This document shows, in pieces, positions 7,933 to 62,847 of a stretch of 64,000 nt of DNA. The notes beneath the pieces were generated by a model that worked only from the letters and a program-made list of their open reading frames with translations, was not told where the DNA came from and made no database searches. The position numbers were made by a program, and so were the translations under genes. Numbering within the stretch: the stretch's first letter is position 1; each line of letters begins with the position of its first letter. Source of the stretch: Methanobacteriota archaeon (GTDB lineage: Archaea; Halobacteriota; Bog-38; Methanoflorentales; Methanoflorentaceae); the NCBI GenBank assembly GCA_963720465.1, contig OY970393.1:2016001-2080000 (forward strand), read 5' to 3'.

Positions 7933-9744
7933 TTAGGGTCTTGCAGGTCGCTTTTCGGGTTTCTCCGCGTTGATCACGCCTTTTGCCCCGTCAACTGGTA
8001 GCTCCTGCTCCCTAATATTTAGCGGCGTCGCGTTGTACCAGAAGCTGTTGAAGAGCTCCTTTTCGATAAAAATGAACTCAGAAATGTCCGTTCTGAAGGC
8101 TGACTTGTATACCACATTATCTATGTCGCCGGTGTCGTAGATATAACTCGTTCCGAGCAGCTTGTCATCATCGGATATAAAAATTCCTGCCCCAGTCTCC
8201 GATTCAAGATGCCGAATTTCAAAATACTTCGTAAGCAGACGCGCTTCTTCGATGTTGACGCTTTCAATAGGTGCCAGCAAACGATACGTAATCTTGGGCA
8301 TCTCTCTATCCTTGATCAAATTATAGAGCCGTTTTACCCCCATACGAGTTTGGATCACGTTAAATTCATTTTTTGATCTGTCGAGCATTTCGTAGAAAGC
8401 TTTGTAGACGTTCTCCCTCTTCTTTATGACTTGGATCGTCTGCACCACTCGTCCTGCCGTCAGCTCTTGTTCTCTGTACCGCAGCTCGATTCCTGAGTGC
8501 CACATGTCTTCCATCATCGAGTGCTGCGTTTCAACGAAGCTCTGTGTATTCGTATAAATTGAATTATAGAGCTCTGCGCCCTTGTCACTAAATGAATAAA
8601 GCAGCACTTGCATAACTTGCTGATCGATGATTACCCCCGTGCTATGGACGATCTGAGGGATGTGGCGCACATCGGCACGTTCCGCGATTTCCTGCGCCGC
8701 TTGCAGATTATCCTTGTTAATCTCGGCCATTACAATCACGTCAATACCTCGTTGCCGCGCATCCTTTGGAATGAGTGGTGCGAGAATCGGCAAAGCTTCG
8801 CTTCTGATCCACAAGAATATCTCTTTGTGGGCAGTGTTTATGAGCGACGCGAAGTCTTGCACGATCTCCTGGTAGTCAGTAATGACGCGCGTGACCTCGA
8901 TAGGCTTACCCGTCTCTATCTCTTGTATCCTCAAACGGGCTTCTATCCCTTTGTCCCAGAGTGATTGAAACAGGGAACTCTGGATTTCAATAAATCCGCT
9001 GTTGTTCGACCACAGCGACGGGGTTAGTTCGACTCGCTCTAACTCGTCGAGATCCTTTGTTACGCCCGTATACATCGCCTCTTTGCAGTCTGAAATGACG
9101 ACAGCGAAATTGCTCATCATTGGTGAGTGTCGTATCTTGAAGTACTTAGAGAGCTGCTTTACTACATCGATATTGTTTGGCGTAATCGGAACCAGGATCC
9201 TTAGATCTTCGATCCTGCATTTGTGCTCATCATCTACAAAATAGTCGCAAAGCACTTTGTCCCATCGAAGGAGCCAAAACTCGGTAGAAATGATCCAGAG
9301 CCTTTTTTCTGTAGCGTGGAAGGTCTCGAGGCGCCGGTCGATAATATCGTCTTTGTCATACAGAATGATAAAACCCTCTTCGATCGGACACCATTCGATA
9401 GGCAGGCCTTGCGCTTTTGTGCGCTCAACGTCCCACAGCTCGAGCAGCGTATCTCGCGCCTCGCTGAGGCCCTGTAACTTCGCGGCCTCGTTACTAATGG
9501 CAGGATTTAGCAAGGAGGACGGATATGCAGCTACGAATGTTTCCGGATTGGTCGATATGCGCTTAGCGAGCCCTTGTTTCGAAAGCTCTAGCAGGACCTT
9601 GTTAGCACCGTGACTAGTGAGATGAAGCGATTCGGCTACTTCACCTGCAGTTCGTCGTCCGTTCTGTAGCAGATGAAGGTAAACCTTCCCGGCTTCTTTT
9701 TTGAGGCCGAACTGTGAAAAAAGACTCAATATATCCGCTGGCAT
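7933..9744 (-). CDS. TrmB-family regulator: N-terminal wHTH plus three tandem TrmB/PLD-like effector domains
   Basis: FGLKKEAGKVYLHLL..TAGEVAE HTH; repeated (K/D/E)(I/V)RH...ISD/IID...F..LW units. Confidence 0.75.
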   Translation of the reverse strand: MPADILSLFSQFGLKKEAGKVYLHLLQNGRRTAGEVAESLHLTSHGANKVLLELSKQGLAKRISTNPETFVAAYPSSLLNPAISNEAAKLQGLSEARDTLLELWDVERTKAQGLPIEWCPIEEGFIILYDKDDIIDRRLETFHATEKRLWIISTEFWLLRWDKVLCDYFVDDEHKCRIEDLRILVPITPNNIDVVKQLSKYFKIRHSPMMSNFAVVISDCKEAMYTGVTKDLDELERVELTPSLWSNNSGFIEIQSSLFQSLWDKGIEARLRIQEIETGKPIEVTRVITDYQEIVQDFASLINTAHKEIFLWIRSEALPILAPLIPKDARQRGIDVIVMAEINKDNLQAAQEIAERADVRHIPQIVHSTGVIIDQQVMQVLLYSFSDKGAELYNSIYTNTQSFVETQHSMMEDMWHSGIELRYREQELTAGRVVQTIQVIKKRENVYKAFYEMLDRSKNEFNVIQTRMGVKRLYNLIKDREMPKITYRLLAPIESVNIEEARLLTKYFEIRHLESETGAGIFISDDDKLLGTSYIYDTGDIDNVVYKSAFRTDISEFIFIEKELFNSFWYNATPLNIREQELPVDGAKGVINAEKPEKRPARP

Positions 9745-27906: not shown

Positions 27907-28557
27907 TCAAACTTCCTTTTTAATGGCATCGGGCAAGGTGCTTACGTCGCGCAGCACGAAATCGGGCTGGGCGCGGATCAGCAACTGACGCGTGGCAAAG
28001 CCGCAGAGCACCGCGGCCGTTTTTGTCCCCGCTTTTTTTCCCATAAGGATATCTTCGACCATGTCGCCCACGTAGAGCACCTCTGAGGCGACGACGCGCG
28101 CTTGTTCTATTGCCATACGCAAGGTTTCCGGCGCTGGCTTCCCGTGCTCAAATCCGACATCGTCGCCAAACAACATGGTATCGAAGTACGCCTCGATTCC
28201 TTGTTCAATGACTTCGCTCGTCACGCGCTCGCGAGACCCACCAGAGACGAGGCCAAGCTTCAAATGCCTCTTCTTCAGTTCAAGCAGAGCGTCGGCAGTA
28301 CCGTCGAACAGTACGCATTCCTTGTTGTGTCGCTCGTAGCAGTCCATCCACGCCGCGTCTGCGATTGCCCAGTCGTCTTCGCGTATCCCTAAGTACAAGT
28401 AGTAATCGTGATAGTTGGGACGACTCTCTTGGCGGAACTCTTCGAGGGTTACCTGTTGCAGGCCGAAAGCGTCCATGACGCCTAGATAGCTCTCGTACGT
28501 GGGAATGACCGAATTGTAAAGCGTCCCATCCCAGTCGAACATCACTGCTTTAAGCAC
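27907..28557 (-). CDS. HAD-superfamily IA phosphatase (Gph-like)
   Basis: FDWDGTL, GKPAP, YVGDMVEDI; 4 nt downstream of the TGT-like gene. Confidence 0.88.
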   Translation of the reverse strand: MLKAVMFDWDGTLYNSVIPTYESYLGVMDAFGLQQVTLEEFRQESRPNYHDYYLYLGIREDDWAIADAAWMDCYERHNKECVLFDGTADALLELKKRHLKLGLVSGGSRERVTSEVIEQGIEAYFDTMLFGDDVGFEHGKPAPETLRMAIEQARVVASEVLYVGDMVEDILMGKKAGTKTAAVLCGFATRQLLIRAQPDFVLRDVSTLPDAIKKEV

Positions 28558-28561
28558 GTCC

Positions 28562-29560
28562 CTACTCCCGCGGCAGTTTTTCGCTCACGATGGCATAGCA
28601 TCTCCACAGTTCTTGCTTGTCATACTCAACAAGCCGCTGTTGGGTGAGCTCTGCAATCGTATTGTTCTCGAGAGCGTCATTTATACGCGCTTCTGAAAGG
28701 CGCACCATATGAACGTTGTGTCTTGCGCGCGCTTCAGGAGAGCGCTTGAGCTCGTAGAGCACGTCAAGCGGATTCTTGCTCGAGCACAATTCGCAGGCGC
28801 ACGTCCATTCGCCGAGTTTGTCTGCTCGCACAAGCCTGCCTGAAGCCGTTAAGACAGAGCCATACGCGAGTCCTGCGATAACGGCACTCGAGCCGTCTGC
28901 TGACGTAACGTTAGCGCATGCGAGAAGCTCGAGGGCGTTGAATGAGCTGCCTCCCGAGGCGTGAAATTGCGCGTCTCCAAACTCACTTAAGAGCTGATTG
29001 TATGCGGCGAGCACCTCAAACTGTTTCACGCGATCTTCGGAGCGGAATTTCGCGAGGCGGGAAAACAGTCCAAATCCCGCTGAGAGCTTCGTCAAACCGG
29101 CATTTAAAGCTCTCTCGAATATGTAACGGGCATCGCGGAACGTACCGACCTCAAAGCCAGCGTACAACAAATCAGGTCGTTGAGCGTTCTCCTTTGCCCA
29201 CAAAGCGGCTTCTAGGCTCGTTTCGAGCGCCTTCATACGATCTGCTTTGACGCGCTTCCAGTAGGGCGTTTTGAAATCGCCGTTGACCGGAACGTTGAGT
29301 GTCATCAAACCATCGGTCTGGTCGTTTACCAGCTGTTCCTGCAATAAGAGAACCCGTTCTTTCGTTCGCAGTTCGGGCTTTTTCGAATATGGGGGTGAGA
29401 AAAAGTTGCCACTGTGAATGAAATGGTGGGGGAGGGTTGTTGGATCAGTCGCGTACGCATTTGCGAAGGTCGTGTTATCGAAGGATAACACAACGGGGTC
29501 ATTCAGCCCTCGCAGCGTCGGGACGAACGTGCGGTAGAATTGAAATGCACTGGCAGACAT
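28562..29560 (-). CDS. divergent tRNA-guanine transglycosylase-fold protein
   Basis: FHASG, TSADGSS, CACELC...HN zinc site align with TGT motifs; HSGNF and LNVP replace DSGxF and xDxP. Confidence 0.75.
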   Translation of the reverse strand: MSASAFQFYRTFVPTLRGLNDPVVLSFDNTTFANAYATDPTTLPHHFIHSGNFFSPPYSKKPELRTKERVLLLQEQLVNDQTDGLMTLNVPVNGDFKTPYWKRVKADRMKALETSLEAALWAKENAQRPDLLYAGFEVGTFRDARYIFERALNAGLTKLSAGFGLFSRLAKFRSEDRVKQFEVLAAYNQLLSEFGDAQFHASGGSSFNALELLACANVTSADGSSAVIAGLAYGSVLTASGRLVRADKLGEWTCACELCSSKNPLDVLYELKRSPEARARHNVHMVRLSEARINDALENNTIAELTQQRLVEYDKQELWRCYAIVSEKLPRE

Positions 29561-29653
29561 CGTGTCGTTTTTGTGAGAAATAGGCACGCAAGCTTTTTAA
29601 CGCACGGGTATAGCTTATATCTACTTAAATTGATATAAAAATGGTGAGGTTAC

Positions 29654-29881
29654 ATGCCAAATGGACTTATGGATTCGGAGCGAATACGCGAGATTGTGCG
29701 ATCAAGCAAAGACTACCTTCAGATTATTTATCAGAACGACACGAAACTCGTGTTAAAGGTACACAGCGATCCTGCTATTGAAGTCAAAGTTGAAGACGAA
29801 GGAACCACTCTTTCCGTCGACATAGTTGAACCCGAAAGGCTTGGCCAGTTGGTCCAGCAGTTTCGGGATCTGATGTCGTAA
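29654..29881 (+). CDS. small hypothetical protein
   Basis: 75 aa, GGTGAGG SD, divergent from the TGT-like gene. Confidence 0.65.
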   Translation: MPNGLMDSERIREIVRSSKDYLQIIYQNDTKLVLKVHSDPAIEVKVEDEGTTLSVDIVEPERLGQLVQQFRDLMS

Positions 29882-29903
29882 GCTCGGCGATGAGAGCGAT
29901 AAA

Positions 29904-30125
29904 ATGATTGGCAATGCACTTTCCGCGCTGAAGACGTTCGGTGTTGCGGCCCGCGCCCTCGATGAAGAGGGCTTGACCGTCGAAATACGCAACCGGGGCA
30001 AGCCCGCTGTTGCCATTGGGCGAAACGCCCACTCCCTAGTGCTGGACAAGGTCTATGGTCCAATAAAAGTAAAAAGCTTCAAAGAAGTCGTCGAATTAAT
30101 GGGGAAAATCGCCGCCGGAACATAG
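29904..30125 (+). CDS. small hypothetical protein
   Basis: 73 aa, co-oriented with the previous ORF. Confidence 0.6.
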   Translation: MIGNALSALKTFGVAARALDEEGLTVEIRNRGKPAVAIGRNAHSLVLDKVYGPIKVKSFKEVVELMGKIAAGT

Positions 30126-30157
30126 GAGGAGGACGGCTCACGAGACTAAGCGCTTTT

Positions 30158-30430
30158 TTGGTGTATCTCCTGGGAGCACTGCTGATAATGGCCGGCGCGT
30201 TCGTGCTTCTGTCACAATTGGGGGTCCTCGGGCTCCTCCTTAGTACCCTAAATCTTCCCGCGATCGTTCTGTTTGCACTCGTGCTCATCCTCATTGGATT
30301 CGTCCTGATCCGAGGGGCGTCACTGATCGCCTATAGCTCCAACCACCAGAAAAAAGATCGTAATGAGCTAGACTATAAGGATCTCACCTACGAAGACCAA
30401 GACCCGTGGAGGTACAAAAAGCGGGACTAG
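30158..30430 (+). CDS. small membrane protein
   Basis: Two hydrophobic helices and a charged tail. Confidence 0.6.
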   Translation: MVYLLGALLIMAGAFVLLSQLGVLGLLLSTLNLPAIVLFALVLILIGFVLIRGASLIAYSSNHQKKDRNELDYKDLTYEDQDPWRYKKRD

Positions 30431-30822
30431 TCACCGGTGAGCTTCGCGCTCTGCGGCGCGTTTATTATGTCTTCGTAGTACCTGATTCTTTCGTCGATCA
30501 CACCTTCGAATTTCCTATACTCGCGTATTACACCAATCCACATGAGCCCGTAGCATAGGGCGATCGAAATAAGAACGGTTCCCCCGGCTAGTATATAGTT
30601 GTCGCCTCGCACGAGAATGGCGTTGCCGTACAAGTATTGAGACGTGAGTACGACGTAAACAGCGAGAAGAATCCCTGCCACCCCACCCCACATCGATTTT
30701 ATGTGCCATATGTGGCGTTCGTGGCGTTTTTCCATTTTTCGAAAATCTAACTCAAGAATTCGGTTGTAGACAGCGCCCTTGTTGACTTCGACGTATTTGT
30801 TTTGTCCGCGCTGCGTGGTCAC
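30427..30822 (-). CDS. two-TM hypothetical protein
   Basis: 131 aa; GTG start overlaps the stop of the PT-repeat gene. Confidence 0.65.
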   Translation of the reverse strand: MTTQRGQNKYVEVNKGAVYNRILELDFRKMEKRHERHIWHIKSMWGGVAGILLAVYVVLTSQYLYGNAILVRGDNYILAGGTVLISIALCYGLMWIGVIREYRKFEGVIDERIRYYEDIINAPQSAKLTGD

Positions 30823-31298
30823 ATTCTCCTTGTTGTGTAATAGAAGCCAACCATAAGCCCAACCGCAATAATGCCGATTATCGCTGCGCCGACAAGTGTA
30901 GGATCAGCGCCGCCTCCCGTTTGATTGGCCGTAGGCGTTGCACTCACCACCGGCGTAGGCGTTGCACTCACCACCGGCGTAGGCGTTGCACTCACCACCG
31001 GCGTAGGCGTTGCACTCACCACCGGCGTAGGCGTTGCGGTTGGCGTAGGCGTCGCGGTTGGCGTAGGCGTTGCGGTTGGCTTAGGCGTTGCGGTTGGCGT
31101 AGGCGTTGCGGTTGGCGTAGGCGTTGCGGTTGGCGTAGGCGTCGCGGTTGGCTTAGGCGTTGCCGCTACTGCACCAGCGGCCTGTTGTGCGTGCAAAGAA
31201 AGCGCCGCTGTCGACGAAGCTACCGCTACAGCAATTAGGAAAGACAGCACTACAACGCGTGAGATGAGAATTCTGGAGCCTCCTGCTTGTAACGACAA
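30819..31298 (-). CDS. secreted Pro/Thr-repeat protein with C-terminal TM anchor
   Basis: Signal peptide, TPTATP and TPTPVVSA repeats, TM helix, basic tail. Confidence 0.75.
   Translation of the reverse strand: MSLQAGGSRILISRVVVLSFLIAVAVASSTAALSLHAQQAAGAVAATPKPTATPTPTATPTPTATPTPTATPKPTATPTPTATPTPTATPTPVVSATPTPVVSATPTPVVSATPTPVVSATPTANQTGGGADPTLVGAAIIGIIAVGLMVGFYYTTRRM
30930..31163. repeat. coding tandem repeats: 4 x 24 bp then about 7.5 x 18 bp
   Basis: CGTAGGCGTTGCACTCACCACCGG x4; CGTAGGCGTTGCGGTTGG-type units. Confidence 0.95.
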
Positions 31299-42095: not shown

Positions 42096-43109
42096 TCACG
42101 GCACAAGCGGTGCACCGTAACTGAACTTCTCAAATTCCAAGACGTACTTCCATAGCAGTCGATCAGTGCAAGCCGCAGTGAACGACGTGCTGCCTTGAGA
42201 AAGCGAAAACTCCTTGATTTCTGAGACGACCTGCCGATCGCACTTGCCGCAGTTGTGCGGCCCGCGAGCTGTGCCCCCTCCTACGGGATCACAAATGATA
42301 GTAGCCATTTGTTTCACGCGCTTGAGAACTTCCACGGCGGTCCACAGCCAAGGAGGCCTATACAGCCTTTTTTTCCAAAGCCCCTCAACTAAGGTGCCTT
42401 TTTGCACGTTGCACAAGTTTAACGAGATTGTATCTGCGTGTGGGGCAGCGTCATGCGTAGATTGGATGGCGTCTTCCAAGGCTTCCAATTCTGTCAGGAA
42501 AGGTGGCTTCAGGAGCAGATAAGCCTTAACGGTCAGACCTTCAGAGTGCGCGACTTTGGACGCTCTGACGAAGTCACGAAACGTAAATCCCTTGTTGATA
42601 CAGCTATTCCGGATATCGTCGTTCGACGTTTCAAGACCGATCGCGACCTCAACGTGTCGATTGGATCTAACGACATCATCCAAAATCTCAGACGTCACGA
42701 ATTCCGGTCGGCTCTCAACAATGACCTTCGGCGTATCCGCTAACGCGGACAATATAGCGCCTCGCGCGTCGATCGGCATCTCTTCTTGATCGAGAAAGCT
42801 GCCTGAGGTGAAGAGCTTCACAATCTTAAACCGGGTGCCGTAGCGTGCAAGCACTTCGAACAGTTGCGTTTGAATATCCGAGCTTTGAGCGTCAGGATTC
42901 GAGTCAGCGATGTAGCCGCACATTGTACAGCCATCACGGCGCGCCCACGAGCAGCCTTTGGTCGTAAGAAGGATGGTGAGAGAGGGTACGATTTCGCCGT
43001 TGAGCAGATCCAAGCCGGTCCACGCGAATCGGTCGTGTGTGCGAGGGCCGCTTGTTTCTGATGCAGCCTGACGCGGATGACGCCTATGCGACGCTCGCCC
43101 TGTTTTCAT
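42096..43109 (-). CDS. archaeosine biosynthesis radical SAM enzyme RaSEA
   Basis: GCSW....GCTMCGY, KLFTSGSF, VESRP, YLLLKPPF, RGPHNCG; ATGA overlap with arcS. Confidence 0.88.
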   Translation of the reverse strand: MKTGRASHRRHPRQAASETSGPRTHDRFAWTGLDLLNGEIVPSLTILLTTKGCSWARRDGCTMCGYIADSNPDAQSSDIQTQLFEVLARYGTRFKIVKLFTSGSFLDQEEMPIDARGAILSALADTPKVIVESRPEFVTSEILDDVVRSNRHVEVAIGLETSNDDIRNSCINKGFTFRDFVRASKVAHSEGLTVKAYLLLKPPFLTELEALEDAIQSTHDAAPHADTISLNLCNVQKGTLVEGLWKKRLYRPPWLWTAVEVLKRVKQMATIICDPVGGGTARGPHNCGKCDRQVVSEIKEFSLSQGSTSFTAACTDRLLWKYVLEFEKFSYGAPLVP

Positions 43110-44791
43110 CGCGCATCCACGTGCCGCACAGCGACAGCGGCACCTCTTTTTGACGCTTGCATCTCCCAACCGCTCATAAGGGCTCTTCCGACTGCAATGA
43201 CGCGCTCGTTGAGCACGATCACTTCGTCGAAGGGCCGTATTCCAGGATCGGCTTTCAGCACGCCAATCGCAAAAACCGTTCCTTTCGGTACAAAGTCATC
43301 GATGTTTACGCAATATCGATTTTCGCTTGCGCGGAGATACCGTCGGGCGCCTTCGATTGTCAGGGCAAGAGTGCAGTAGGTACCTACGATGGTCGCTATG
43401 CGCGTTCCGCCGTCTGAGGCGTAGTAAGTCGGGAAAAGACCGCGGACCTTCGTCCTCTCTGCAAAAATAGCCGTCGAAGCGTGCGGGCCAAATTCATAAT
43501 CGGCGAGATCCTGTAGGTAATCAAACCGCAAATCGCGCTGCTTAGGTGAATCTTCGACTATAAGCTCCTGCGCGACCGCGCATAAGCGTTGGAGGGAAGC
43601 GGAACCCAGGATATTTTCGTCCTCGACAGTATGGGTTAGATCAACTCCGAGCGCAGCCGCCGCTTCGTCGCATACCTTTCGGTAGGGGCCACTCACGTGT
43701 GTTACCACTGTGTCGAAGGCGTTGGCCTCGAGATACTTCGTGAGACGTCCGATCACCCACTCACTCTCGTCGCACGTCCATTTGCCGGTAACCGGTATAT
43801 CGTAGTTGCTGGCAGGGTACATGATCTCGAGGCTGCGGGGAACGATGCCGATAGGCGACGTTATTATCGCCTCGTGCAGAAACTGGCGCAGTTTGCCCAA
43901 GCGATTAAGAATAATCCTGTGAGATCGTGACCGCGAGTATGGTTTGCGCGCCGAGCAGGGAAGTAGCAGGAGGATTCCATCTCTCTTATTAAGCCGCTCG
44001 ATGACGCGTTCGCCGAATCGGAGTATTTCTGGCCGATTCAGCGATTCTTGTGAACACGCGAGTAGCGTGGCCGTCCGTACGATAGGTGACCGGCGCTCAA
44101 AGTAACTATGCTCTTCATCGAGCAACCGTAGCAGCGCTGTTAGCATCGGGGCAGTTCTGCATCGTCCCTCGACGAGCTCTCGCAGAGTCCCGCGCTCGAT
44201 GTTTTCGCGCACGATACAGAGTTCAGCTTTGAGGGCGTGTCTGTTGTGCGCAGATAGTACTGTCACCCGCTGCTCTGGAGTCAGGTCCGCTACGTTGACG
44301 CCTCTGCAGGCGTCGCACAAACAATAAGAACGAGAAATCGCGTCAAACTGGCGTTCGCCTTCAGCAAAGAGGAGGTACCCCTCGCGCGCCTTGACTTCCG
44401 CCATAATTGGGTCGACGAGATCCACCCCCGCATAGACGAGCAAACTCACGTTGCCCGGGGTCGCCAACGCCGGGACATAAAGCGCTGAATCAGGATTTGT
44501 TGATTCTCTAACTCCTGTCAGCGCTTTGGTCAGGCCGCGCGGATCATCGCTAAATCTCGCAGCGCCACCAAGAATGACAACATCGGCATCAATTCGCTCT
44601 GCCCTATAATCTTCCTGATTTGTGATGACCGCCACGTCGAGCTCAGCGTTATGAATCGTCAATGCGTTGAGGAACTCAAGTTCCTCTTTGGAGTCAAAGC
44701 TAGAAGGGGTGGTAAGCTCTTCACCTCGCCACCTGAGCGTTCCGAGGCGGGCAGCTCCGTCCCGCCGTGTCACTTCAAACTGTCGCGGCAT
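43106..44791 (-). CDS. arcS: archaeosine synthase subunit ArcS
   Basis: RDGAARLG, PCSARKPYSRSRSH, TSPIGIVP, YDIPVTG.W, C-terminal PUA. Confidence 0.92.
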   Translation of the reverse strand: MPRQFEVTRRDGAARLGTLRWRGEELTTPSSFDSKEELEFLNALTIHNAELDVAVITNQEDYRAERIDADVVILGGAARFSDDPRGLTKALTGVRESTNPDSALYVPALATPGNVSLLVYAGVDLVDPIMAEVKAREGYLLFAEGERQFDAISRSYCLCDACRGVNVADLTPEQRVTVLSAHNRHALKAELCIVRENIERGTLRELVEGRCRTAPMLTALLRLLDEEHSYFERRSPIVRTATLLACSQESLNRPEILRFGERVIERLNKRDGILLLLPCSARKPYSRSRSHRIILNRLGKLRQFLHEAIITSPIGIVPRSLEIMYPASNYDIPVTGKWTCDESEWVIGRLTKYLEANAFDTVVTHVSGPYRKVCDEAAAALGVDLTHTVEDENILGSASLQRLCAVAQELIVEDSPKQRDLRFDYLQDLADYEFGPHASTAIFAERTKVRGLFPTYYASDGGTRIATIVGTYCTLALTIEGARRYLRASENRYCVNIDDFVPKGTVFAIGVLKADPGIRPFDEVIVLNERVIAVGRALMSGWEMQASKRGAAVAVRHVDAR

Positions 44792-44797
44792 GTCCTC

Positions 44798-46234
44798 TCA
44801 TAAGCGTAAGAGCGTTGCAAAGGAGCTTAATTCGGCGAGTGCGTCGCGATCCCATTCCTCATCATAGGCGAAGGTCACTTCGACATTTTTGGATTTGATA
44901 AACTCGATCAGGTTTCTCATGGCGGATTTGATTGAGGCATAGTCTGGATCTGGAACTTCAGATTGTCCAATAGGATACGTTTCGGCTAGTTCTGGTGGAT
45001 AGGGACCAAAAGGCGCTTTCATGAGCAGGGTCGTATCGAACTCGTGTTCCATAGTCCGCGTCTTCTGCCTGTTGGTCGTGATGAGCATTCGGCCGGTCAG
45101 GTCAAGTCTGCTGAGCTTTTTCACGTAGCGCGCAACTTCTGGCCGCGCGGCAGATTCTGTGCTAGTATAAATGAAAGACCGCTTCAAAGGTTCGATAGCT
45201 TCGAAGGAGGCAACGCCCTCTTGGATCGTTCGAAGGGCTTGTAGTAGCGCTGGATGTCGGCACCGCCTCTCCACGAGCTCCCAGAGTTGTCCGTCGAGTA
45301 TCGCTTGTTTGATGGTGTTGAGCTCACTAAATGAAACCCAAAGATTGTGTTCGGCAAGTTCCCGTTCCGTCAGCTTCCTATCTCCAGACGAGCAGACCGG
45401 ACACGCGCACGGCAGGTAAGCCAAATCTTTGAGCTTGTGAGTGCCACTCGGCGTCAGATAACGCCCATCTCTCGCGTAAAGCGCATAAGCTGCTGAGTCG
45501 AACAGGTCACAGCCTAACGCCACGGCGAGGGCGAACATCATGGGATGCCCTGCTCCAAACAGGTGAACAGGCTTATTCAACGCCAGTCCTGTCTTGCACG
45601 CCATAATGACGTTGCTCAGATCAGCATACCGATAGGATTCCATGAGCGGAACGACGGCACCAATAGGGTAGACGTCGGCGCTGAGCTTGCTGAGCAGCCC
45701 CGCATACCGTTCCCGCAAATCGAGGTGGGTCGAGCCTTGGATGGGCGCTGCTAAGAGCATGTCGGCGCCGCAGCACCTTGTTGCCTCTTCAATGCGTTCG
45801 AGCGTCACGTCAAGCTCCCTGAGCGCACGGTGATGTGAAACGTCTGGGGGCGTCGGGATATCAATTGGAGTTCCGATGTCCGACCCTGCATCGCGCTGGA
45901 AAGCCACTATCTCTTCTGAATGGATCTCTATGTCACCATACGTGGCGAGTTGAAACGATCCCGAATCAGTCATTATCGGCCCGTCAAATCGGAGCAAACT
46001 GTGAATCCCCGCGGAGAGCGCCGCCTCCCGCAAACGGGGACTCCGGTAAATGATATATGCGTTGGTCATGAGCGCTTCCGCTCCGAACTGGCGCATCTCG
46101 CTCGGCGCGATGAGCATTATGTTGAGATTTACAACCGGGAGTAAAGCTGGAGTTTCGATGTGGCCGTGTGGCGTATCAAGCTTGCCAATGCGCCCGAATA
46201 CGTCCTTGTGTGTGATTTCAAATCGATCAGGCAT
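44798..46234 (-). CDS. tgtA: archaeal tRNA-guanine(15) transglycosylase
   Basis: TPALLPV, MTDSGSFQ, IDIPT, QGS, HLFGAGHP, DLFDSAAY, CACPVC..HN. Confidence 0.95.
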   Translation of the reverse strand: MPDRFEITHKDVFGRIGKLDTPHGHIETPALLPVVNLNIMLIAPSEMRQFGAEALMTNAYIIYRSPRLREAALSAGIHSLLRFDGPIMTDSGSFQLATYGDIEIHSEEIVAFQRDAGSDIGTPIDIPTPPDVSHHRALRELDVTLERIEEATRCCGADMLLAAPIQGSTHLDLRERYAGLLSKLSADVYPIGAVVPLMESYRYADLSNVIMACKTGLALNKPVHLFGAGHPMMFALAVALGCDLFDSAAYALYARDGRYLTPSGTHKLKDLAYLPCACPVCSSGDRKLTERELAEHNLWVSFSELNTIKQAILDGQLWELVERRCRHPALLQALRTIQEGVASFEAIEPLKRSFIYTSTESAARPEVARYVKKLSRLDLTGRMLITTNRQKTRTMEHEFDTTLLMKAPFGPYPPELAETYPIGQSEVPDPDYASIKSAMRNLIEFIKSKNVEVTFAYDEEWDRDALAELSSFATLLRL

Positions 46235-46805
46235 CGCCACCTCGTGGCATGACGATGATCTCCCTGATCCGGGCATCAAAAAAGTTGTTCATGTGCGCAG
46301 GACGTATCACTACCGCCGTATCGGAACCGCTGCCTGTGCCGCCTACGGCGACAACGTCGGCGATAGGTATAGCCCCGGCATCAGCTGCCATAATAGCTAT
46401 CTCCACGCACACTTTGAGCCCGTGTCCAAGTAGTGAACGAAGGGCTTCTGCGATAGTCTCGACGCGCGAAACGCCGCCGAACTTCCTGGAAATACTCCTT
46501 TCGATTCCCGAAAGCACGTGTGATTGGGTCAGCACCGTGATTCCCTGCAGCTCGAGCATTTTCCGTTTTTCGGCGTCAAAACGCTGCGTGCCCTCTTGAC
46601 TGAAGCCCGTATGGTGTGTGACAACGACCAGTGCTGCTTTGTTTTCAAGCGCTTTTGCAAATTTAGTCGCGGTGGAGCCCGTCGTCCTAGCTACAACAAC
46701 TCGCTCGAGGCCGCTCCGGGTGATGTAGGCCGTGACGGCGTCGATGACATCTTCCGTGTTTTGAGGGCCGGGCCTCTCTAGATAAATGATTTGTTCTTTT
46801 CGCAT
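46227..46805 (-). CDS. pyruvate kinase C-terminal-like alpha/beta protein (MTH1675 type)
   Basis: PGPQNT, VVTHHTGF, GLKVCVEIAIMAADAG, GSDTAVV. Confidence 0.85.
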   Translation of the reverse strand: MRKEQIIYLERPGPQNTEDVIDAVTAYITRSGLERVVVARTTGSTATKFAKALENKAALVVVTHHTGFSQEGTQRFDAEKRKMLELQGITVLTQSHVLSGIERSISRKFGGVSRVETIAEALRSLLGHGLKVCVEIAIMAADAGAIPIADVVAVGGTGSGSDTAVVIRPAHMNNFFDARIREIIVMPRGGDA

Positions 46806-56924: not shown

Positions 56925-58766
56925 ATGATTGAAGCTCTTGCGACATTAGGTCAGTATTCTATAGCTCAGCGGGAAGGCACTGACGAAAGCCATTTGCAAA
57001 CTTTGGTTGATGATCCTAAAACCTCAACAAGGTACAAGCACGTTTTATTTGTTACATTCGATGCGGCCAAAGACTACAGCTTTACCGGAGTCGAGTATGA
57101 GGAGTACTCAAAAGAGAAGATCTGCGAGTATCTCTACAAGAAAGGTGCTCCCAACGGGCCGGATGTCACGCCGACGGCAAGGGTTGCCGCAAAAATCGAA
57201 AAAACCTTTGATAATAAGATCGCGAAATGGTTTGAAAACGCATTGGATGACGATCTCGTGCGGCAGGATCAAACAAATTACGCATTCTTGCTCAAGCTCT
57301 CCAATGCTATAGAGCGTGAGCATGATCGCATTCTTGCTGAGCTCACAGCAAAGTTTGATGCTATCGAGAAAAAAGACCGCGTCATCATTTCGATCCTCAT
57401 CGAGAACGACCCGATCGGGAGGTACGTCGGGGATTTTCCGATATTCAGACAGATCGTTTCGAAAAAAGGCGTAGAGGCCTACTATAAGAGGTACGGCTTC
57501 GAGTCGGTAGCCTATGACCAAACGTGTTCCGTCTGCAAAACGGTCACTCCAGAGGTGTATGGATTTGCCAGCACTTTTGCATTCTACAACGTCGACAAGC
57601 CCGGATTCGTCAGCAGCGGGTTCGACCAATCAAAAGCTTGGAAAAATTACCCCGTCTGCGAGCGCTGCGCGTTGATTTTGGAAGAAGGTCGAAAGTTCCT
57701 CGAGCGCGATTTTGCCTTTCGGATGTACAATTTGAACTATTTCATCATTCCAAAGCCTTTGTTTGACCGCGATAGCGGCGAGGTGATCAAAAAATTCCTT
57801 TATTATAAGCGTGATTTTCGGTCACTGAGCCCCAAGAACAAGCGCATGGTGGACGCGCGAGAGGACGACATCCTGAACTATCTGTCCGAGCAGCATAACT
57901 TTTTTAACAACAACTTCCTGTTTTATGAAAAATCCAACGCCGCCTTTCGAATCCTCCTCTACATCGAAGACGTCCTCCCGTCTCACATCCGACGAATGTT
58001 TGAGGCCAAGGCGGTCGTTGACGAAAAATCTATGTTCAAAGCTGCAGGCAAGGACGGCGAGAGCTTGCTCTTCGACTTCCGGGCAGTGAACCACTTCTTC
58101 TGGGGTTCAGATAAGCGGAAGCACTTCTTAGAAGTTATTGATAGCATTTTTACCTCGAGGCAGGTTGACTATTCATTCTTGATTCGGTCGATAATCAACA
58201 AGATCCGCGACGACTACGCTCGAGGCAACTATACAAAATATTCAACGCTGCGCGGCATACAGCTCCTACTCTTTTTGCACGAGATGGATCTGCTGAAGCG
58301 ATATGAAGGTGATGGGCCAATGAAAGAAACGACAATTTTTGATGTGGACGATTCGAATCCCGTCGTCGACGCCGTGAATACATTGTTCGACGAATTTCCC
58401 GACTTCTTTGATACCAACGCAAAACGGGCGGTTTTCTTAGAAGGAGTCCTGACTGAGAAGCTGTTGCGTGTGCAGTACATGGAAAGAGGCGGAGCCACCC
58501 CTTTTAAGTCAAAGCTTAACTCTCTCAATCTGGATGAGCGTCTCCTTAAGAAACTGCTGCCGCAAATCCAAAACAAGTTTCAGGAATATGGAAAGGACTA
58601 CTATCGCACGCTGGAGAAGCTGCTAGCCGAGCATATGGTAAAAGCAGGCACAAACTGGAGGATGACTCCGGATGAGATAAGCTTCTACTTTGTCATGGGA
58701 ATGAACCTCTCAGACTACGTTAAAGGCAGCCCTGCTGCATCTGTGGAAGGTGATACAGATGGATGA
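56925..58766 (+). CDS. cas8b: type I-B Cas8b (Csh1/TM1802 family)
   Basis: CSVC..FYNVDKPGF..WKNYPVC..C; YFIIP; FYFVMGM; first gene of the Cascade operon. Confidence 0.9.
   Translation: MIEALATLGQYSIAQREGTDESHLQTLVDDPKTSTRYKHVLFVTFDAAKDYSFTGVEYEEYSKEKICEYLYKKGAPNGPDVTPTARVAAKIEKTFDNKIAKWFENALDDDLVRQDQTNYAFLLKLSNAIEREHDRILAELTAKFDAIEKKDRVIISILIENDPIGRYVGDFPIFRQIVSKKGVEAYYKRYGFESVAYDQTCSVCKTVTPEVYGFASTFAFYNVDKPGFVSSGFDQSKAWKNYPVCERCALILEEGRKFLERDFAFRMYNLNYFIIPKPLFDRDSGEVIKKFLYYKRDFRSLSPKNKRMVDAREDDILNYLSEQHNFFNNNFLFYEKSNAAFRILLYIEDVLPSHIRRMFEAKAVVDEKSMFKAAGKDGESLLFDFRAVNHFFWGSDKRKHFLEVIDSIFTSRQVDYSFLIRSIINKIRDDYARGNYTKYSTLRGIQLLLFLHEMDLLKRYEGDGPMKETTIFDVDDSNPVVDAVNTLFDEFPDFFDTNAKRAVFLEGVLTEKLLRVQYMERGGATPFKSKLNSLNLDERLLKKLLPQIQNKFQEYGKDYYRTLEKLLAEHMVKAGTNWRMTPDEISFYFVMGMNLSDYVKGSPAASVEGDTDG
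58320..58766 (+). CDS. cas11: putative Cas11 small subunit from an in-frame internal start in cas8b
   Basis: GAAGGTGAT SD at 58305-58313, in-frame ATG 58320, helical 148-aa domain. Confidence 0.6.
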   Translation: MKETTIFDVDDSNPVVDAVNTLFDEFPDFFDTNAKRAVFLEGVLTEKLLRVQYMERGGATPFKSKLNSLNLDERLLKKLLPQIQNKFQEYGKDYYRTLEKLLAEHMVKAGTNWRMTPDEISFYFVMGMNLSDYVKGSPAASVEGDTDG

Positions 58767-59754
58767 TTACGTAAAGAACAGGTCTGAAATTATTTTTTTG
58801 TACGACGTCAAAGACGCAAACCCGAATGGCGATCCGCTTGACGAGAACCGTCCGCGGATCGACGAAGAGACTGGCATTAATCTGGTCACCGACGTCCGGC
58901 TTAAGCGGACGATCAGGGACTACTTGCACAACTTTAAGGACGAAGAAATATTCGTCAGGGAAATTGAGTATGGTGACGGTTACATCCAGGATGCAAAGCA
59001 GCGCGCTGAGGATTTCCTCCCCGCCGACACGAGCATGCCGGCAGGTCTTAATGAAAAGAAGAAGGTAATCGACGAGGGTGTGTTGCGCGCATGCATCGAC
59101 GTGCGGCTGTTTGGGGCCACGATACCGATCAGCTCGACAAAATCGACGAAAGGCGCTGACGAAGAAAAAAAGGGAGCGATCACCCACACGGGTCCAGTGC
59201 AGTTCAAAATCGGCCGGTCAATGCACAAAGTATACGTTAAGCATTTTAGGGGCACGGGGGCGTTTGCGTCCGGCAAAGGCGCGACACAAAAGACGTTCAG
59301 GGAAGAGGACTTTCTGCCCTATTCACTGATCAACTTCTATGGCATCATCAACGAGAACGTGGCGCCTGAGACGCGGCTCACCGAGCGCGATGTCAACGCG
59401 CTGGTGGACGCTATGTGGAACGGCACCAAGAACCTCATCTCACGGTCGAAAGCAGGGCAAGTCCCGCGGCTGCTCGTAAAAGTGAATTACCGGACCCGTA
59501 ACTACCACATCGGCGACCTCAACTCTGGCATCAAGCTTGTTTCAGAGCTGGACGATGAGGTAATACGTGACATCTCGGAAGTACAGCTTGACGTCGACGA
59601 GTTTATAGCCGCGTTGCTGCGTCACAAAGAGACCATTGAAAGTATACAGCATAAGGTCGATCCGAAAGTTAGGCTGCTGCACAATGGCGCTGAAATGACA
59701 TTCGAGGCGTGCCTGGATCAAGCCGGCGTTGCTCACTCTGCGCTCAGCTTCTGA
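58759..59754 (+). CDS. cas7: type I-B Cas7 (Csh2)
   Basis: NPNGDP..NRPR, VTDVRLKRTIRDY, DVRLFG, TGPVQF, SRSK.GQ.PR. Confidence 0.95.
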   Translation: MDDYVKNRSEIIFLYDVKDANPNGDPLDENRPRIDEETGINLVTDVRLKRTIRDYLHNFKDEEIFVREIEYGDGYIQDAKQRAEDFLPADTSMPAGLNEKKKVIDEGVLRACIDVRLFGATIPISSTKSTKGADEEKKGAITHTGPVQFKIGRSMHKVYVKHFRGTGAFASGKGATQKTFREEDFLPYSLINFYGIINENVAPETRLTERDVNALVDAMWNGTKNLISRSKAGQVPRLLVKVNYRTRNYHIGDLNSGIKLVSELDDEVIRDISEVQLDVDEFIAALLRHKETIESIQHKVDPKVRLLHNGAEMTFEACLDQAGVAHSALSF

Positions 59755-59762
59755 GGGACGGC

Positions 59763-60467
59763 ATGCAGCCCGTGATCGCATTTGATCTCTGGGGAGACTA
59801 CGCACATTTTCGCAAGTACTTCACAACAACGTCACCCCTCACCTTCTTACTACCCCCTCGAACGGTGTTAATGGGGCTCATAGGGGCTGTCTGCGGGCTC
59901 AAAAAAGAGGAGTACATTAAAACCTTCGCAGGCGACCAGGCACGATTAGCCGTCTCGATATGCCTTCCAGCGAGGAAGGTCAGGTTGGTAGAAAACTTCA
60001 TTGACACTAAAACTGCGCTCCTTATGGGCAAAATCAAGAACCGCACCCAGATAAGGCTTGAGCTCGTTAAAAACCCGCGGTATCGCGTTTACGTGAGCCT
60101 GAAAAACAAGGCACTGCACGATCTGTTGAAGGAGATGCTCGTCGCCCACAAATGTGTCTATACGCCGTATCTTGGAATCAGCGAACTCATCGCAAATTTT
60201 TCCTACGTCGGCGAGTACGCTGCGGAAGCGCGAGCGCCAGACAAACACGTGAATATCGTCACCGCGCTGAACGCTGACCTCATTCGGGACCTCACCATTG
60301 AGGATAATAAAGAGTACTTCTCAGAGGTGATGCCGTGCGACATGGCGGAAGACCGATCTGTCACGCGGTATTCTAAGATCGTGTACGAACGCAACGGGCA
60401 GGCAGTCAAAGCCCACGTTACCGAATGTCTGGAACTTGAAAAAGGCGAATTCATTGCGTTCATGTGA
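59763..60467 (+). CDS. cas5: type I-B Cas5
   Basis: FDLWGDYAHFRK..TSPLT..PPRT..GLIGA; YTPYLG. Confidence 0.95.
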   Translation: MQPVIAFDLWGDYAHFRKYFTTTSPLTFLLPPRTVLMGLIGAVCGLKKEEYIKTFAGDQARLAVSICLPARKVRLVENFIDTKTALLMGKIKNRTQIRLELVKNPRYRVYVSLKNKALHDLLKEMLVAHKCVYTPYLGISELIANFSYVGEYAAEARAPDKHVNIVTALNADLIRDLTIEDNKEYFSEVMPCDMAEDRSVTRYSKIVYERNGQAVKAHVTECLELEKGEFIAFM

Positions 60468-62847
60468 ACTCCTCTCCCATCCTAAAAAAACGCTGCTTGA
60501 ACACCTCGGCCAGGTCTCGCAAACGTGTCGCGAGACTGCCGCCTCAAAAGAAATCCGCTACAGCGATCTCGGGCTGACGCGTGACTTATTCACGCGCTTT
60601 ATGGAAACAGTCGGAGCGGCACACGACTTTGGCAAGTCGACACGCTATTTTCAAGAGTATCTGCGCGCCGCCGATGATCCGCGCTATACAAAACCCGCAG
60701 AAGCAAATCACGGCGTCATATCAGCGATATTCACCTACCACGCCGTAAAAACGGTCATCGGCGGCACGGATGGCGACGTCGCCGCTTATCTCCCGTACAT
60801 CGGCTTTCTCATCGTGAAGCGGCACCATGGGAATCTTAAGAACGCTAAGGATGAGATTCTGGACGCGGTTCATCCCGACAGCATCGATCGTGTAACAAAC
60901 CAAATCAACAGCATCGACCACGACAGGGTGCAAGGTCTCTACGACGCACTCGTTCTAGGCTTACGCGCCGATGTTTTTTTGCAGGAGCACCGCGCCGTCA
61001 TAAGCCAGCTCAACGAGGATAAGTTCGTTTTTGACGGATGGTTGGGTGCGTACCCGACTCCCGCCGTCTGCATTCTCATGTTGATGAGCTATTCTATACT
61101 AATCAGCGCCGACAAAGCAGAGGCATCGGGCACGAGCGTGCAGCGCTGCGAAGAGGCGCTCGCCGAAGACCTCGTCGAGGTTTATCGGCAGGCGAAGGGG
61201 TATGACGAGGCTGTAACCGACATTGACGGCATGAGAAACGCCATCTACGCGGCGGTATCGGCGTCGATCACTTCGGTGGACCTGGCGACGAAGATCATGT
61301 CCATCACAGCGCCAACCGGCACTGGTAAGACGCTCACTGCGCTCTCGGCAGCGCTGAAGCTCCGCCATATGGTGCACGCTGCGCACGGTTATTATCCGCG
61401 CATCATCTACTGTTTGCCGTTTCTGTCGATCATCGATCAAAACTTCGGCGTTCTTGAAGACGTGTTAACCTGCAATGACATTCCCATAACGAACGACGTG
61501 TTATTGAAACATCACCACCTAGCGGAGGCCTTCTACACGACGCGCGACAATGAATTTGAATCGGATCGGGCCCAGTTCTTGATCGAGGGCTGGGATTCTG
61601 AGATCATCGTCACCACTTTTGTACAGTTCTTTCACTCACTCTTTACGAACAAGAACCGCTCGCTCCGGAAGTTTCACAACATAGTTAACTCGATCATCAT
61701 CTTGGACGAGGTGCAGGCGATCCCTCATAAATATTGGAAGCTCCTGAACGATTTTCTTCGGACCCTCGGGCACATTTTCGCAACATATATCATCTTGGTA
61801 ACTGCAACCCAGCCGCTCATTTTTGAGGGCGACGTAGTCGAGTTGCTGACTGATCGATCTGCATATTTTGAAAAGCTCAATCGTGTGCATCTTTATCCGC
61901 ACGTCAGCGCTTCGTGTACTTTTGCCGAGTTTACCGACACAGTGCAAGCAGATATTGCGCAACACCCAACGAGCAGCTTCCTGATCGTGTTAAACACGAT
62001 CAACTGCGCTCGCGAGATGTATGCGAGCTTGCAGGAGTACGATGACGGTGACACCGTGTACTACTACCTAAGCACGCATGTCACACCGCACGAACGGTTC
62101 CAGCGAATACGCGACATTAAGCGCGGCATAAAACGTGCAGTTATCGTGAGCACCCAACTTGTCGAGGCCGGCGTGGACATCGATGTCGACGTCGTCTACC
62201 GGGACTTCGCGCCACTAGACTCCATCAACCAAGTGAGTGGCCGGTGCAACAGGAACGATCGGAGTGACACACGCGGTATTGTAAACTTATACGTCGTGAA
62301 TGACAAAAAAAAGGACGTTTACAGATACATTTATTCAGGATTGCCTGTAGACAAGACGCGCGAGGTTTTTAAAGCCTACGAAGACGGCGCAACAGCGCAA
62401 CGTGGAATACAGGAAACCTATTTTTTGGACCTCATAAACCGCTATTTCGCAAAGATCAAAGGGGGGCTTTCTGAAGACGAGTCGAAAGAGCTGCTTCAGT
62501 CCATCAAAAAGCTGGAGTTCGACGACGTATCCCACGAGTTTAGGCTGATCGACGAAAAAGGATATGAGAAGTTCGACCTCTTCGTTGAACTCAACGATCA
62601 TGCTGTTAAGACGTGGGAGCGCTACATGCGCGTTCGAAGCGTGGAAAACCCGTTTGAGCGGCGGAGGGCTTTCCTACAAATCAAGCGTGAGTTTTATGAC
62701 TACGTCATTTCCGTACCCGCTCGTGAGGTTTCGAACGACGTTAGGGATTTCGCGTACATAGGAAAGCTTCCTTATGAGCGCCTCGACACGTACTACGATA
62801 AGGCGACGGGCTTTAAACCTCGGTCACACGGAGTTATGATCCTGTGA
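60454..62847 (+). CDS. cas3: Cas3 HD nuclease/helicase
   Basis: SHP..LLEH, HDFGK, RHHG, APTGTGKT, DEVQ, TAT, STQLVEAGVD, QVSGRCNR; start uncertain (60436 or 60454). Confidence 0.95.
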   Translation: MRSCELLSHPKKTLLEHLGQVSQTCRETAASKEIRYSDLGLTRDLFTRFMETVGAAHDFGKSTRYFQEYLRAADDPRYTKPAEANHGVISAIFTYHAVKTVIGGTDGDVAAYLPYIGFLIVKRHHGNLKNAKDEILDAVHPDSIDRVTNQINSIDHDRVQGLYDALVLGLRADVFLQEHRAVISQLNEDKFVFDGWLGAYPTPAVCILMLMSYSILISADKAEASGTSVQRCEEALAEDLVEVYRQAKGYDEAVTDIDGMRNAIYAAVSASITSVDLATKIMSITAPTGTGKTLTALSAALKLRHMVHAAHGYYPRIIYCLPFLSIIDQNFGVLEDVLTCNDIPITNDVLLKHHHLAEAFYTTRDNEFESDRAQFLIEGWDSEIIVTTFVQFFHSLFTNKNRSLRKFHNIVNSIIILDEVQAIPHKYWKLLNDFLRTLGHIFATYIILVTATQPLIFEGDVVELLTDRSAYFEKLNRVHLYPHVSASCTFAEFTDTVQADIAQHPTSSFLIVLNTINCAREMYASLQEYDDGDTVYYYLSTHVTPHERFQRIRDIKRGIKRAVIVSTQLVEAGVDIDVDVVYRDFAPLDSINQVSGRCNRNDRSDTRGIVNLYVVNDKKKDVYRYIYSGLPVDKTREVFKAYEDGATAQRGIQETYFLDLINRYFAKIKGGLSEDESKELLQSIKKLEFDDVSHEFRLIDEKGYEKFDLFVELNDHAVKTWERYMRVRSVENPFERRRAFLQIKREFYDYVISVPAREVSNDVRDFAYIGKLPYERLDTYYDKATGFKPRSHGVMIL

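Follow-up and report, generated by a model that had tools for sequence, protein, structure and literature searches.

In a stretch of 64,000 nucleotides from a Methanoflorentaceae archaeon of the class Bog-38 (assembly GCA_963720465.1, contig OY970393.1, positions 2,016,001 to 2,080,000 of the forward strand; hereafter the window), we identified a minus-strand gene whose product, judged by sequence, belongs to a separate, undescribed family of the TGT (tRNA-guanine transglycosylase) superfamily, which we call the 'HSGN' family. Sequence comparison indicates that this family keeps the nucleophile Asp of TGT enzymes, while His has permanently taken the place of the general acid/base Asp, and Asn that of the Asp that reads guanine. 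We give about an even chance to the reading that the protein is an active enzyme that breaks the N-glycosidic bond of a base other than guanine in a polynucleotide, RNA being somewhat more likely than DNA as the substrate.

Single-sequence searches detected the relationship faintly. The window protein matched Pfam PF01702 at 13.6 bits (E 0.035, cut-off 26.3) over its C-terminal 60 residues only, scored 20.3 bits on the TgtA model TIGR00432 (cut-off 350), hit ArcTGT 1iq8 at E 0.0068 in phmmer, and aligned by BLASTP with the tgtA product of the window at E 0.004, in the zinc region only. When its own genome was scanned with PF01702, tgtA and arcS alone were returned. Two of the 12 distant family members scanned with the same model barely passed (29.4 and 26.7 bits), and five further open reading frames (ORFs) from distant loci scored 31.4-36.9 bits. 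A profile of 21 family sequences, by comparison, found ArcTGT 1iq8 as its best match (1.1e-9) and DpdA 7ui4 as its second best (3.3e-6). The same 21 sequences were aligned by hhalign to a canonical set of 18 archaeal TGT and TGT-like proteins, window tgtA included, with a probability of 99.8% and E 1.2e-27 over 269 columns.

The AlphaFold2 model built on a 46-sequence alignment has a pLDDT of 92.0 and a pTM of 0.91, and supersedes an earlier run on 36 close sequences (pLDDT 73.7, with residues 11-56 low). According to VIA-align, the best structural match of the model is ArcTGT 1j2b_A (Z 27.0, 300 of 332 residues, rmsd 3.1 Å), and it also matches human and mouse QTRT1 and the Z. mobilis TGT with Z 24-26; these matches extend over 285-302 residues. 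The model covers ArcTGT residues 13-358, corresponding to the catalytic TIM barrel and the zinc subdomain, without the C1/C2/PUA extension, and the window protein is, on this prediction, a complete TGT catalytic domain. The profile-profile match and the structural Z of 27.0 place its fold-level kinship with the TGT superfamily beyond doubt. The motif-by-motif pairing with window tgtA that the initial annotation had drawn was thus reproduced, and the absence of a long C-terminal extension, which it had also pointed out, agrees with the alignment to ArcTGT and with the lengths of the two proteins (332 against 493 residues).

Conservation of the pocket was examined in 112 sequences of at least 280 residues, comprising 43 of the methanogen clade (the window protein among them) and 69 distant ones, and reaching down to 24-32% identity; five others, being fragments or weak hits, were set aside. 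In the hhalign pairing, H49 stands opposite the Asp of DSG and N89 opposite the Asp of IDIP, which correspond to D102 and D156 of the Z. mobilis TGT, and each of these two positions is Asp in 18 of 18 canonical sequences. Within the family, H49, G51 and N52 are each found in 111 of 112 sequences, with a single gap, and position 89 is Asn in 111 and Ser in one. H200, S202 and G203 are invariant (112/112 each), with S202 sitting at the position of the canonical archaeal Phe, and the same holds for S220, D222, G223 and S224 as well as for W101 and R278. D222 falls in the column of the nucleophile Asp, namely the second Asp of DLFDS (D280 of Z. mobilis, D249 of P. horikoshii, D256 of DpdA). Among the zinc ligands, C254 is present in 111 sequences and C256, C259 and H281 in all 112; the zinc subdomain is intact and predicted to bind zinc. 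Retention of both the nucleophile and the zinc site, as first annotated, therefore extends across the family.

Position 137 behaves differently from the rest of the pocket. It is Glu in 73, Gln in 36, Pro in two and Tyr in one of the 112 members, and because of this mixture the change from Gln to Glu is not a family trait; it is a trait of the methanogen clade only. The initial annotation had described three altered base-reading residues, two of which (H49 and N89) hold family-wide, while the third does not. The roles assigned to the Asp residues also needed correction in part. In a study on DpdA (PMC10164549), D95 is described as the general acid/base, D130 as the residue that binds the Watson-Crick edge, and D256 as the nucleophile; the three are given as invariant in TGT and DpdA, and D95A or D256A is reported to abolish exchange. 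The corresponding P. horikoshii ArcTGT residues D95 and D249 are named in PMC5699537. The nucleophile had been assigned properly, but the Asp of DSG, taken initially as a base reader, is according to the DpdA study the general acid/base and not primarily a base reader.

The near-invariance of the nucleophile and of the replaced residues in 112 sequences, together with a median dN/dS of 0.17 within the clade (0.10 for the neighbouring HAD gene; 81 of 120 pairs among 16 sequences, with dS of 0.05-2.5), argues for changed function rather than decay, as had been proposed at the outset. Contigs assembled from RNA libraries (four metatranscriptome runs from four studies, derived from a relative of about 97% identity) that cover the gene, and its position outside the characterised subfamilies, agree with this. 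We regard the product as conserved, under selection and probably expressed, its pocket being different by design.

The family was compared with each characterised branch of the superfamily. The TIM barrel, the zinc subdomain with its CxCxxC..H motif and the H-x-x-G strand are common to the family and ArcTGT, and in both the nucleophile Asp occupies the same strand end. Unlike ArcTGT, the family has no C1/C2/PUA tRNA-binding domains (332 residues against 493-582, window tgtA having 493), and it carries His for the acid/base Asp, Asn for the guanine reader, Ser for the stacking Phe of HLFG, and DGS instead of DS after the nucleophile. The genome already has a canonical tgtA, which lies at 42096-46279 of the window together with arcS and RaSEA. 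All three exceed their equivalog cut-offs (568 bits against 350 for tgtA, 564 against 440 for arcS, and 360 against 212 for RaSEA), and archaeosine synthesis is thus already covered, as the initial annotation stated.

DpdA (7ui4), too, consists of the catalytic domain alone, is of comparable size and carries no PUA domain. Its nucleophile strand, G-V-T-S-I-D-S-T-T-P, resembles the G-[AV]-T-S-x-D-G-S-T-P of the family, an insertion before the zinc motif is found both in DpdA and in some distant family members, and the basic isoelectric point (pI) of the family is shared by the short TGT-like proteins examined. However, DpdA keeps D95, D130 and D256, whereas the family keeps one Asp. PADLOC gave no DpdA hit for the window protein and weak hits only for distant members, and no dpdB, dpdC or preQ0/7-deazaguanine synthesis genes are located beside the window gene or the distant members. 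An origin in defence systems or phages was considered and rejected: neither PADLOC (E up to 0.1) nor PHROG returned a hit for the window protein, and no relative was found on the viral contigs searched with family patterns.

Bacterial TGT and QTRT1/QTRT2 have the same fold, but sequence likeness to them is confined to the zinc region (E about 0.01), and TIGR00430 found nothing even with E allowed up to 1. With QTRT2, the TGT fold already has a paralogue whose active site is altered; in contrast to it, the nucleophile and pocket of the family are invariant and not degraded. Judged by scores, by two of the three Asp residues, by accessory domains and by genomic partners, the family falls outside every characterised subfamily, including those described by the TgtA, ArcS, Tgt and DpdA models, although it derives from the TGT/DpdA enzymes and most likely works as they do.

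A quick maximum-likelihood tree of 65 rows, which excludes bacterial TGT, QTRT1/2 and validated DpdA, places 46 family rows behind a branch of length 1.5 with an SH-aLRT of 100; on its other side are eight ArcTGT, ten short TGT-like proteins and ArcS. ArcS groups with these canonical rows, on a long branch, and not with the family. The methanogen clade also forms a long branch (1.09), whose placement among the Asgard-type rows is unresolved in this tree. A literature search (on the TGT superfamily and DpdA, archaeosine paralogs, Methanoflorens and Asgard TGT) returned nothing on the family, within a coverage that leaves out most subscription journals.

The window protein has 55 close relatives with 57-95% identity. 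The family is rare: an exhaustive profile search of 1.84 billion representatives returned just 28 proteins at E <=0.001, among which the distant relatives are 289-438 residues long; the weakest of the 28 are a repeat protein with no kinship to the family and three TGT/DpdA-like proteins of the ordinary kind, which show DSGGF and DSxDSS motifs. About 60 further sequences came from two word-indexed searches that used alignments of distant members, and the named hits of these searches are overwhelmingly Asgard-labelled. In the first, 11 of 34 hits were named (six Helarchaeota, and one each of Promethearchaeota, Lokiarchaeota, Hodarchaeota, Bathyarchaeota and a bacterial label); in the second, 11 of 39 (four Promethearchaeota, two Lokiarchaeota, two Sigynarchaeum, and one each of Hodarchaeota, Bathyarchaeota and 'archaeon').

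Within the class of the window, which consists of one family and two genera, the gene is a core gene: it is present in 21 of 24 species genomes, and the three genomes without it are 61, 67 and 86% complete. In a sample of 401 genomes of the phylum, full-length matches are confined to the family of the window, and the other matches are ArcTGT, ArcS or short proteins of 342-345 residues with canonical motifs. A scan with patterns specific to the methanogen clade yielded 20 contig loci, all from peat, fen and bog methanogen metagenome-assembled genomes; one bears a bacterial label, which is probably a binning error. Bacterial labels were noted on two members in total, L021 (Acidiferrales) and P0098 (Deferrimicrobium), and L021 is probably mis-binned archaeal DNA because it shows the full archaeal synteny, including CDC48 and Elp3. 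At one distant locus (L043:830-1758, plus strand) the family gene reads as two ORFs that overlap each other (830-1207 and 1183-1758), owing to either a frameshift or a sequencing error.

In the preferred reading, that of an active enzyme acting on a base in a polynucleotide, a nucleotide would be flipped into the barrel, and Asp222 would attack C1' to form a covalent ribosyl-enzyme intermediate. His49 would protonate the leaving base and deprotonate the incoming base or water, and the second half-reaction would deliver either a replacement base (exchange) or water (glycosylase). Asn89, Glu/Gln137, Asn52 and Ser202 would then read a base other than guanine or 7-deazaguanine. The carboxylate-acceptor pair for the N1-H/N2-H edge of guanine would be gone; Asn89 would offer one donor and one acceptor in place of the two acceptors of the guanine reader; position 137, which tolerates Glu or Gln, would probably take a hydrogen bond; Ser202 would stand where a hydrophobic residue stacks, and Asn52 would add a polar group. 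A polynucleotide is favoured as substrate because all structural relatives act on tRNA or DNA, because the pI of the family is basic (medians of 8.8 and 9.1, whereas the ArcTGT catalytic domains examined lie at 5.5-6.2), and because the gene stands solitary in varied housekeeping neighbourhoods without a pathway cluster.

Several points count against this proposal. The favoured activity is drawn from sequence and a model, and the residue equivalences as well as the pocket geometry likewise come from sequence profiles and the predicted structure. Canonical enzymes lose activity when the general acid/base Asp is lost, and His would have to take over its part. The basic pI is weak evidence, and the window protein itself has a pI of 7.0. 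The RNA-library contigs prove neither transcription nor strand. A mononucleotide substrate could instead be hinted at by the HAD genes nearby, in the window and in one distant lineage, and by the NUDIX gene of another lineage, and H49, H200 and D222 could form a metal site instead of a glycosidic active site.

The last of these points leads to the alternative that survives best, although we consider it unlikely: the enzyme would modify a tRNA or rRNA base in place without glycosidic cleavage, like ArcS, with its Asp, His and Asn serving other chemistry, possibly with a metal. ArcS, whose TGT-related domain has turned to chemistry other than guanine exchange and which is encoded in the same window, shows that the superfamily already includes a non-exchanging member. 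The invariant H49, H200 and D222 could build a His-His-Asp site, and two Asp needed for exchange in the canonical enzymes are gone. However, the residue that is never lost is precisely the covalent nucleophile, lying in an S-x-D-G-S strand end like the DxFDS of the exchangers. Furthermore, the protein has no ArcS-type extra domain and no RaSEA-like partner in its neighbourhood, and its score on the ArcS model of NCBIfam (NF040592) is 17.9 bits against a cut-off of 440.

The coordinates of the gene, its pocket residues and its neighbours are listed in Table 1; those given in the initial annotation for the TGT-like gene, the HAD gene and the three small divergent genes were all right.

Table 1. 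Features of the TGT-like locus, in window positions
Feature	Position	Strand	Basis
TGT-fold gene, 332 aa, 'HSGN' family member	28562..29560	-	ORF, AlphaFold2 model, structural and profile matches
H49-S50-G51-N52, replacing D-S-G-G/S	29405..29416	-	hhalign pairing; codon coordinates checked
N89, replacing the xDxP Asp that reads the guanine Watson-Crick edge	29294..29296	-	hhalign pairing
E137, replacing the Gln of IQGS	29150..29152	-	hhalign pairing; varies in the wider family
H200-A-S202-G203, paired with HLFG	28952..28963	-	hhalign pairing
S220-A-D222-G223-S224, nucleophile strand, paired with DLFDS	28889..28903	-	profile and hhalign pairing
Zinc site, C254-x-C256-x-x-C259 ... H281-N282 (predicted)	28715..28801	-	aligned with CxCxxC..HN of ArcTGT
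HAD-IA phosphatase, 216 aa	27907..28557	-	HAD_2 8.6e-34; HAD-IA subfamily models; RNA-library contigs span the junction
Divergent intergenic region with A+T-rich TATA-like stretches	29561..29653	.	sequence; break in the RNA-library contigs
Three small ORFs (75, 73 and 90 aa; the 90-aa one hydrophobic), divergent neighbours	29654..30430	+	kept inside the clade only

The minus-strand ORF runs from an ATG at 29560 to 28562. It is improbable that translation starts farther out, at a GTG at 29587, since homologues begin at the ATG, TATA-like A+T-rich stretches lie 45-60 nt upstream of it, and the RNA-library contigs from three of four runs stop at 29545-29578. The neighbours of the gene are HAD, HSP20, CDC48 and the small ORFs. 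RNA-library contigs run unbroken over HSP20, HAD and the TGT-like gene, crossing the HAD junction in all four runs; they end at 29357-29578 (three of four at 29545-29578) and resume at 29655-29740, and adapter letters form the loose ends of several of them near the intergenic region. That these contigs are real transcripts of the TGT-like gene, co-transcribed with HAD, is a hint and not a proof. The three small ORFs are found on their own contigs in four of four runs, parted by the intergenic gap from those of the TGT-like gene. No Pfam or NCBIfam family could be assigned to them, and the neighbour-ORF comparison found no counterparts beside distant family members; they are divergent neighbours that may or may not belong to the TGT-like feature.

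The HAD protein scored 43.1 bits on TIGR01549 (HAD-SF-IA-v1, cut-off 23.3) and 42.9 on TIGR01509 (v3, cut-off 29.4), and its N-terminus, MLKAVMFDWDGTL, carries the DxDGT motif I. It falls below every substrate-level (equivalog) cut-off, for instance with 104 bits on PpaX against 218. Its gene adjoins the TGT-like gene in 20 of 20 clade loci, which are collinear: ArsR, CDC48, HSP20, HAD, the TGT-like gene, the three small ORFs, a membrane protein, a PT-rich protein, orf92 and Elp3. Because this whole neighbourhood of 12 genes is syntenic in one clade, the adjacency amounts to one observation. Orthologues of the HAD with 47-49% identity were found in four of four genomes of another family of the phylum, which carries no member of the TGT-like family, and there the HAD adjoins TatC, opposite an IOR-alpha-like operon.

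The distant context consists of 19 metagenome loci in seven sequence/context groups (lineages). A HAD gene is nearby in one of the seven (L033), of a different type and divergently placed; another (L030, L043) has a NUDIX hydrolase gene 55 nt upstream of the family gene; and the remaining five have neither. The other distant neighbours are Tsr3 with a MutY-like glycosylase, SCP2 with giant surface proteins, RuBisCO-like, GH9, DUF362 and toxin-antitoxin genes. When the 144 neighbour ORFs of the 19 loci were clustered by blastp with 12 window proteins, no family common to the lineages was found, and the window HAD had no relative among the 144 at 1e-6. Pfam was run on 100 of the 144 (L024, L026 and L036, near-copies of L023, L025 and L035, and 17 other ORFs were excluded), and 13 neighbour ORFs inspected at loose thresholds gave nothing consistent. 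A shared partner gene was rejected, as no neighbour family recurs between lineages. The 'AP_endonuc_2' neighbour in L030 was likewise rejected as a link to repair, being of the sugar-phosphate epimerase type and not Endo IV.

In the Helarchaeota-type loci (L023-L027), Tsr3 and the MutY-like glycosylase lie upstream of the TGT-like gene, and a conserved ORF of 224-244 residues (in L023 at about 8924-9658, plus strand) overlaps or directly follows it. This ORF has no Pfam hit and only sub-threshold rows in the ESM Atlas, and by eye neither it nor the downstream ORF of L033 contains HAD motifs.

These results bear on a second alternative, in which the two genes would form a small-molecule pathway: the TGT-like enzyme would act on a free nucleoside or deoxynucleoside monophosphate, and the HAD would dephosphorylate the product or supply the substrate. 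The gap between the two genes (TAG, then the 4 nt ggac, then GTG) and a GGAG-like, Shine-Dalgarno-like stretch ahead of the GTG suggest translational coupling, the adjacency is complete within the clade with RNA-library contigs continuous over the junction, and the HAD is of the capped IA type, whose usual substrates are small molecules. The HAD beside L033 and the NUDIX hydrolase directly upstream of the family gene in the L030, L043 lineage point the same way. Against this stand the single syntenic clade behind the 20 loci, the HAD orthologues next to TatC in genomes without a TGT-like gene, and the five of seven distant lineages with neither gene; moreover, we know of no TGT-fold enzyme that acts on free nucleotides. 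We regard such a pathway as rather improbable. A specific version, replacement of CobT by base exchange on nicotinate mononucleotide followed by a phosphatase, was rejected, as the genome has CobS and an archaeal CobT (TIGR00303, 285 bits, cut-off 240). PF02277 alone gave no CobT hit in this genome, but the same model also missed the M. acetivorans and H. volcanii controls.

In the window clade the HAD is probably co-transcribed with the TGT-like gene, but it is most likely not an obligate partner of the enzyme. The conserved TGT-HAD system put forward in the initial annotation is weakly supported, since it comes down to one operon in one clade, and the gene context suggests that the TGT-like gene stands on its own, a pattern seen with many genes for RNA modification and repair.

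A third alternative, to which we give little credence, is that the protein is a DNA glycosylase built on the TGT fold, which would remove uracil or some other base altered by deamination or damage and replace the uracil-DNA glycosylase (UDG) superfamily in the class. Asp222 would serve as nucleophile or water activator, and His49, Asn89 and Phe53 would act like the His, Asn and Phe of UDG; the combination of the kept Asp with His, Asn and an aromatic residue is reminiscent of the UDG residue set. PF03167 was detected in none of the 24 genomes of the class, the closed genome studied here included, compared with 150 of the 177 other sampled genomes of the phylum (150/201 overall) and 13 of 14 controls, and within the 401-genome sample the full-length TGT-like family is present only in this UDG-less class. 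No ExoIII-family gene was found in the genome, DpdA shows that the fold works on DNA, the pI of the family is basic, and a MutY-like glycosylase lies 2 kb from the family gene in one Asgard lineage. However, one lineage represents one evolutionary event, so that the anti-correlation has no statistical weight, and three other UDG-less families (0/3, 0/7 and 0/2) also have no TGT-like gene. In addition, repair of dU and hypoxanthine can be carried out by other gene products of the genome, which has an Endonuclease Q homologue (L085:1492-2889, minus strand; E 6e-93 to PfuEndoQ 5zb8) as well as four HhH-GPD genes.

A non-catalytic subunit that would only bind RNA while pairing with ArcTGT or another enzyme has a precedent in eukaryotic QTRT2, a TGT-fold protein that keeps its zinc site and has lost catalysis, and would fit the loss of two catalytic Asp and the QTRT1/QTRT2 heterodimer entries among the structural matches, but it is very unlikely, given a nucleophile Asp kept in 112 of 112 sequences and seven pocket residues invariant across sequences of 24-32% identity, which suggest a working, conserved pocket and not a degenerate one. 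A complex prediction for tgtA(1-360) with the TGT-like protein scored 0.00 (mark 0.32), which speaks neither for nor against binding.

Some other observations were made in the window and in the phylum. The window contains the methanogen markers mmp3, MCR component A2 and methanogenesis marker 15, and the source genome is one closed contig of 2.31 Mb. A type I-B CRISPR-Cas effector set (cas8b/csh1, cas7/csh2, cas5b and cas3) is located at 56925-62847 on the plus strand. At 30819-31298, on the minus strand, a protein of 159 residues is built mostly from TPTA/TPVVSA repeats and has a hydrophobic anchor at its C-terminus; although conserved over the clade, it evolves fast (37-95% identity), and the plus-strand ORFs that overlap it are repeat artefacts. 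The short TGT-like genes of 342-345 residues, found in several families of the phylum, encode DSGGF, LDxP, HVxGLGG, DxFDSS and CxCPxC..HN motifs and have a basic pI. At two such loci (e.g. L064:3450-4484, minus strand) the next gene encodes a protein of 884-942 residues with a weak TGT hit and DUF6884 (e.g. L064:4624-7452, minus strand), and the two may be an archaeal DpdA-like pair.

Among the characterised members of the TGT superfamily, TGT, ArcTGT, QTRT1 and DpdA replace guanine with a 7-deazaguanine, and ArcS acts on the product of that replacement. Because the nucleophile and zinc site are kept, His and Asn are fixed, and purifying selection acts in two distant archaeal groups, the family described here is a tangible candidate for base recognition or chemistry that would be new to the TGT fold, in a branch of the superfamily that Pfam and NCBIfam models miss entirely and whose members are small, soluble, single-domain proteins. 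Tentatively, and with the chances below even, it may be the first TGT-fold enzyme to excise or exchange a non-guanine base in RNA or DNA by means of an Asp nucleophile and a His acid/base, writing or erasing an undescribed nucleic-acid modification that Asgard archaea would have in common with one class of peat methanogens. As a sub-case, if true, it would be a sixth-fold type of DNA glycosylase for uracil or deaminated bases and would explain a class without UDG. The family could thus lead to a so far undescribed modification of RNA or DNA, or to a new repair activity, in Asgard archaea as well as in peat methanogens of global importance.

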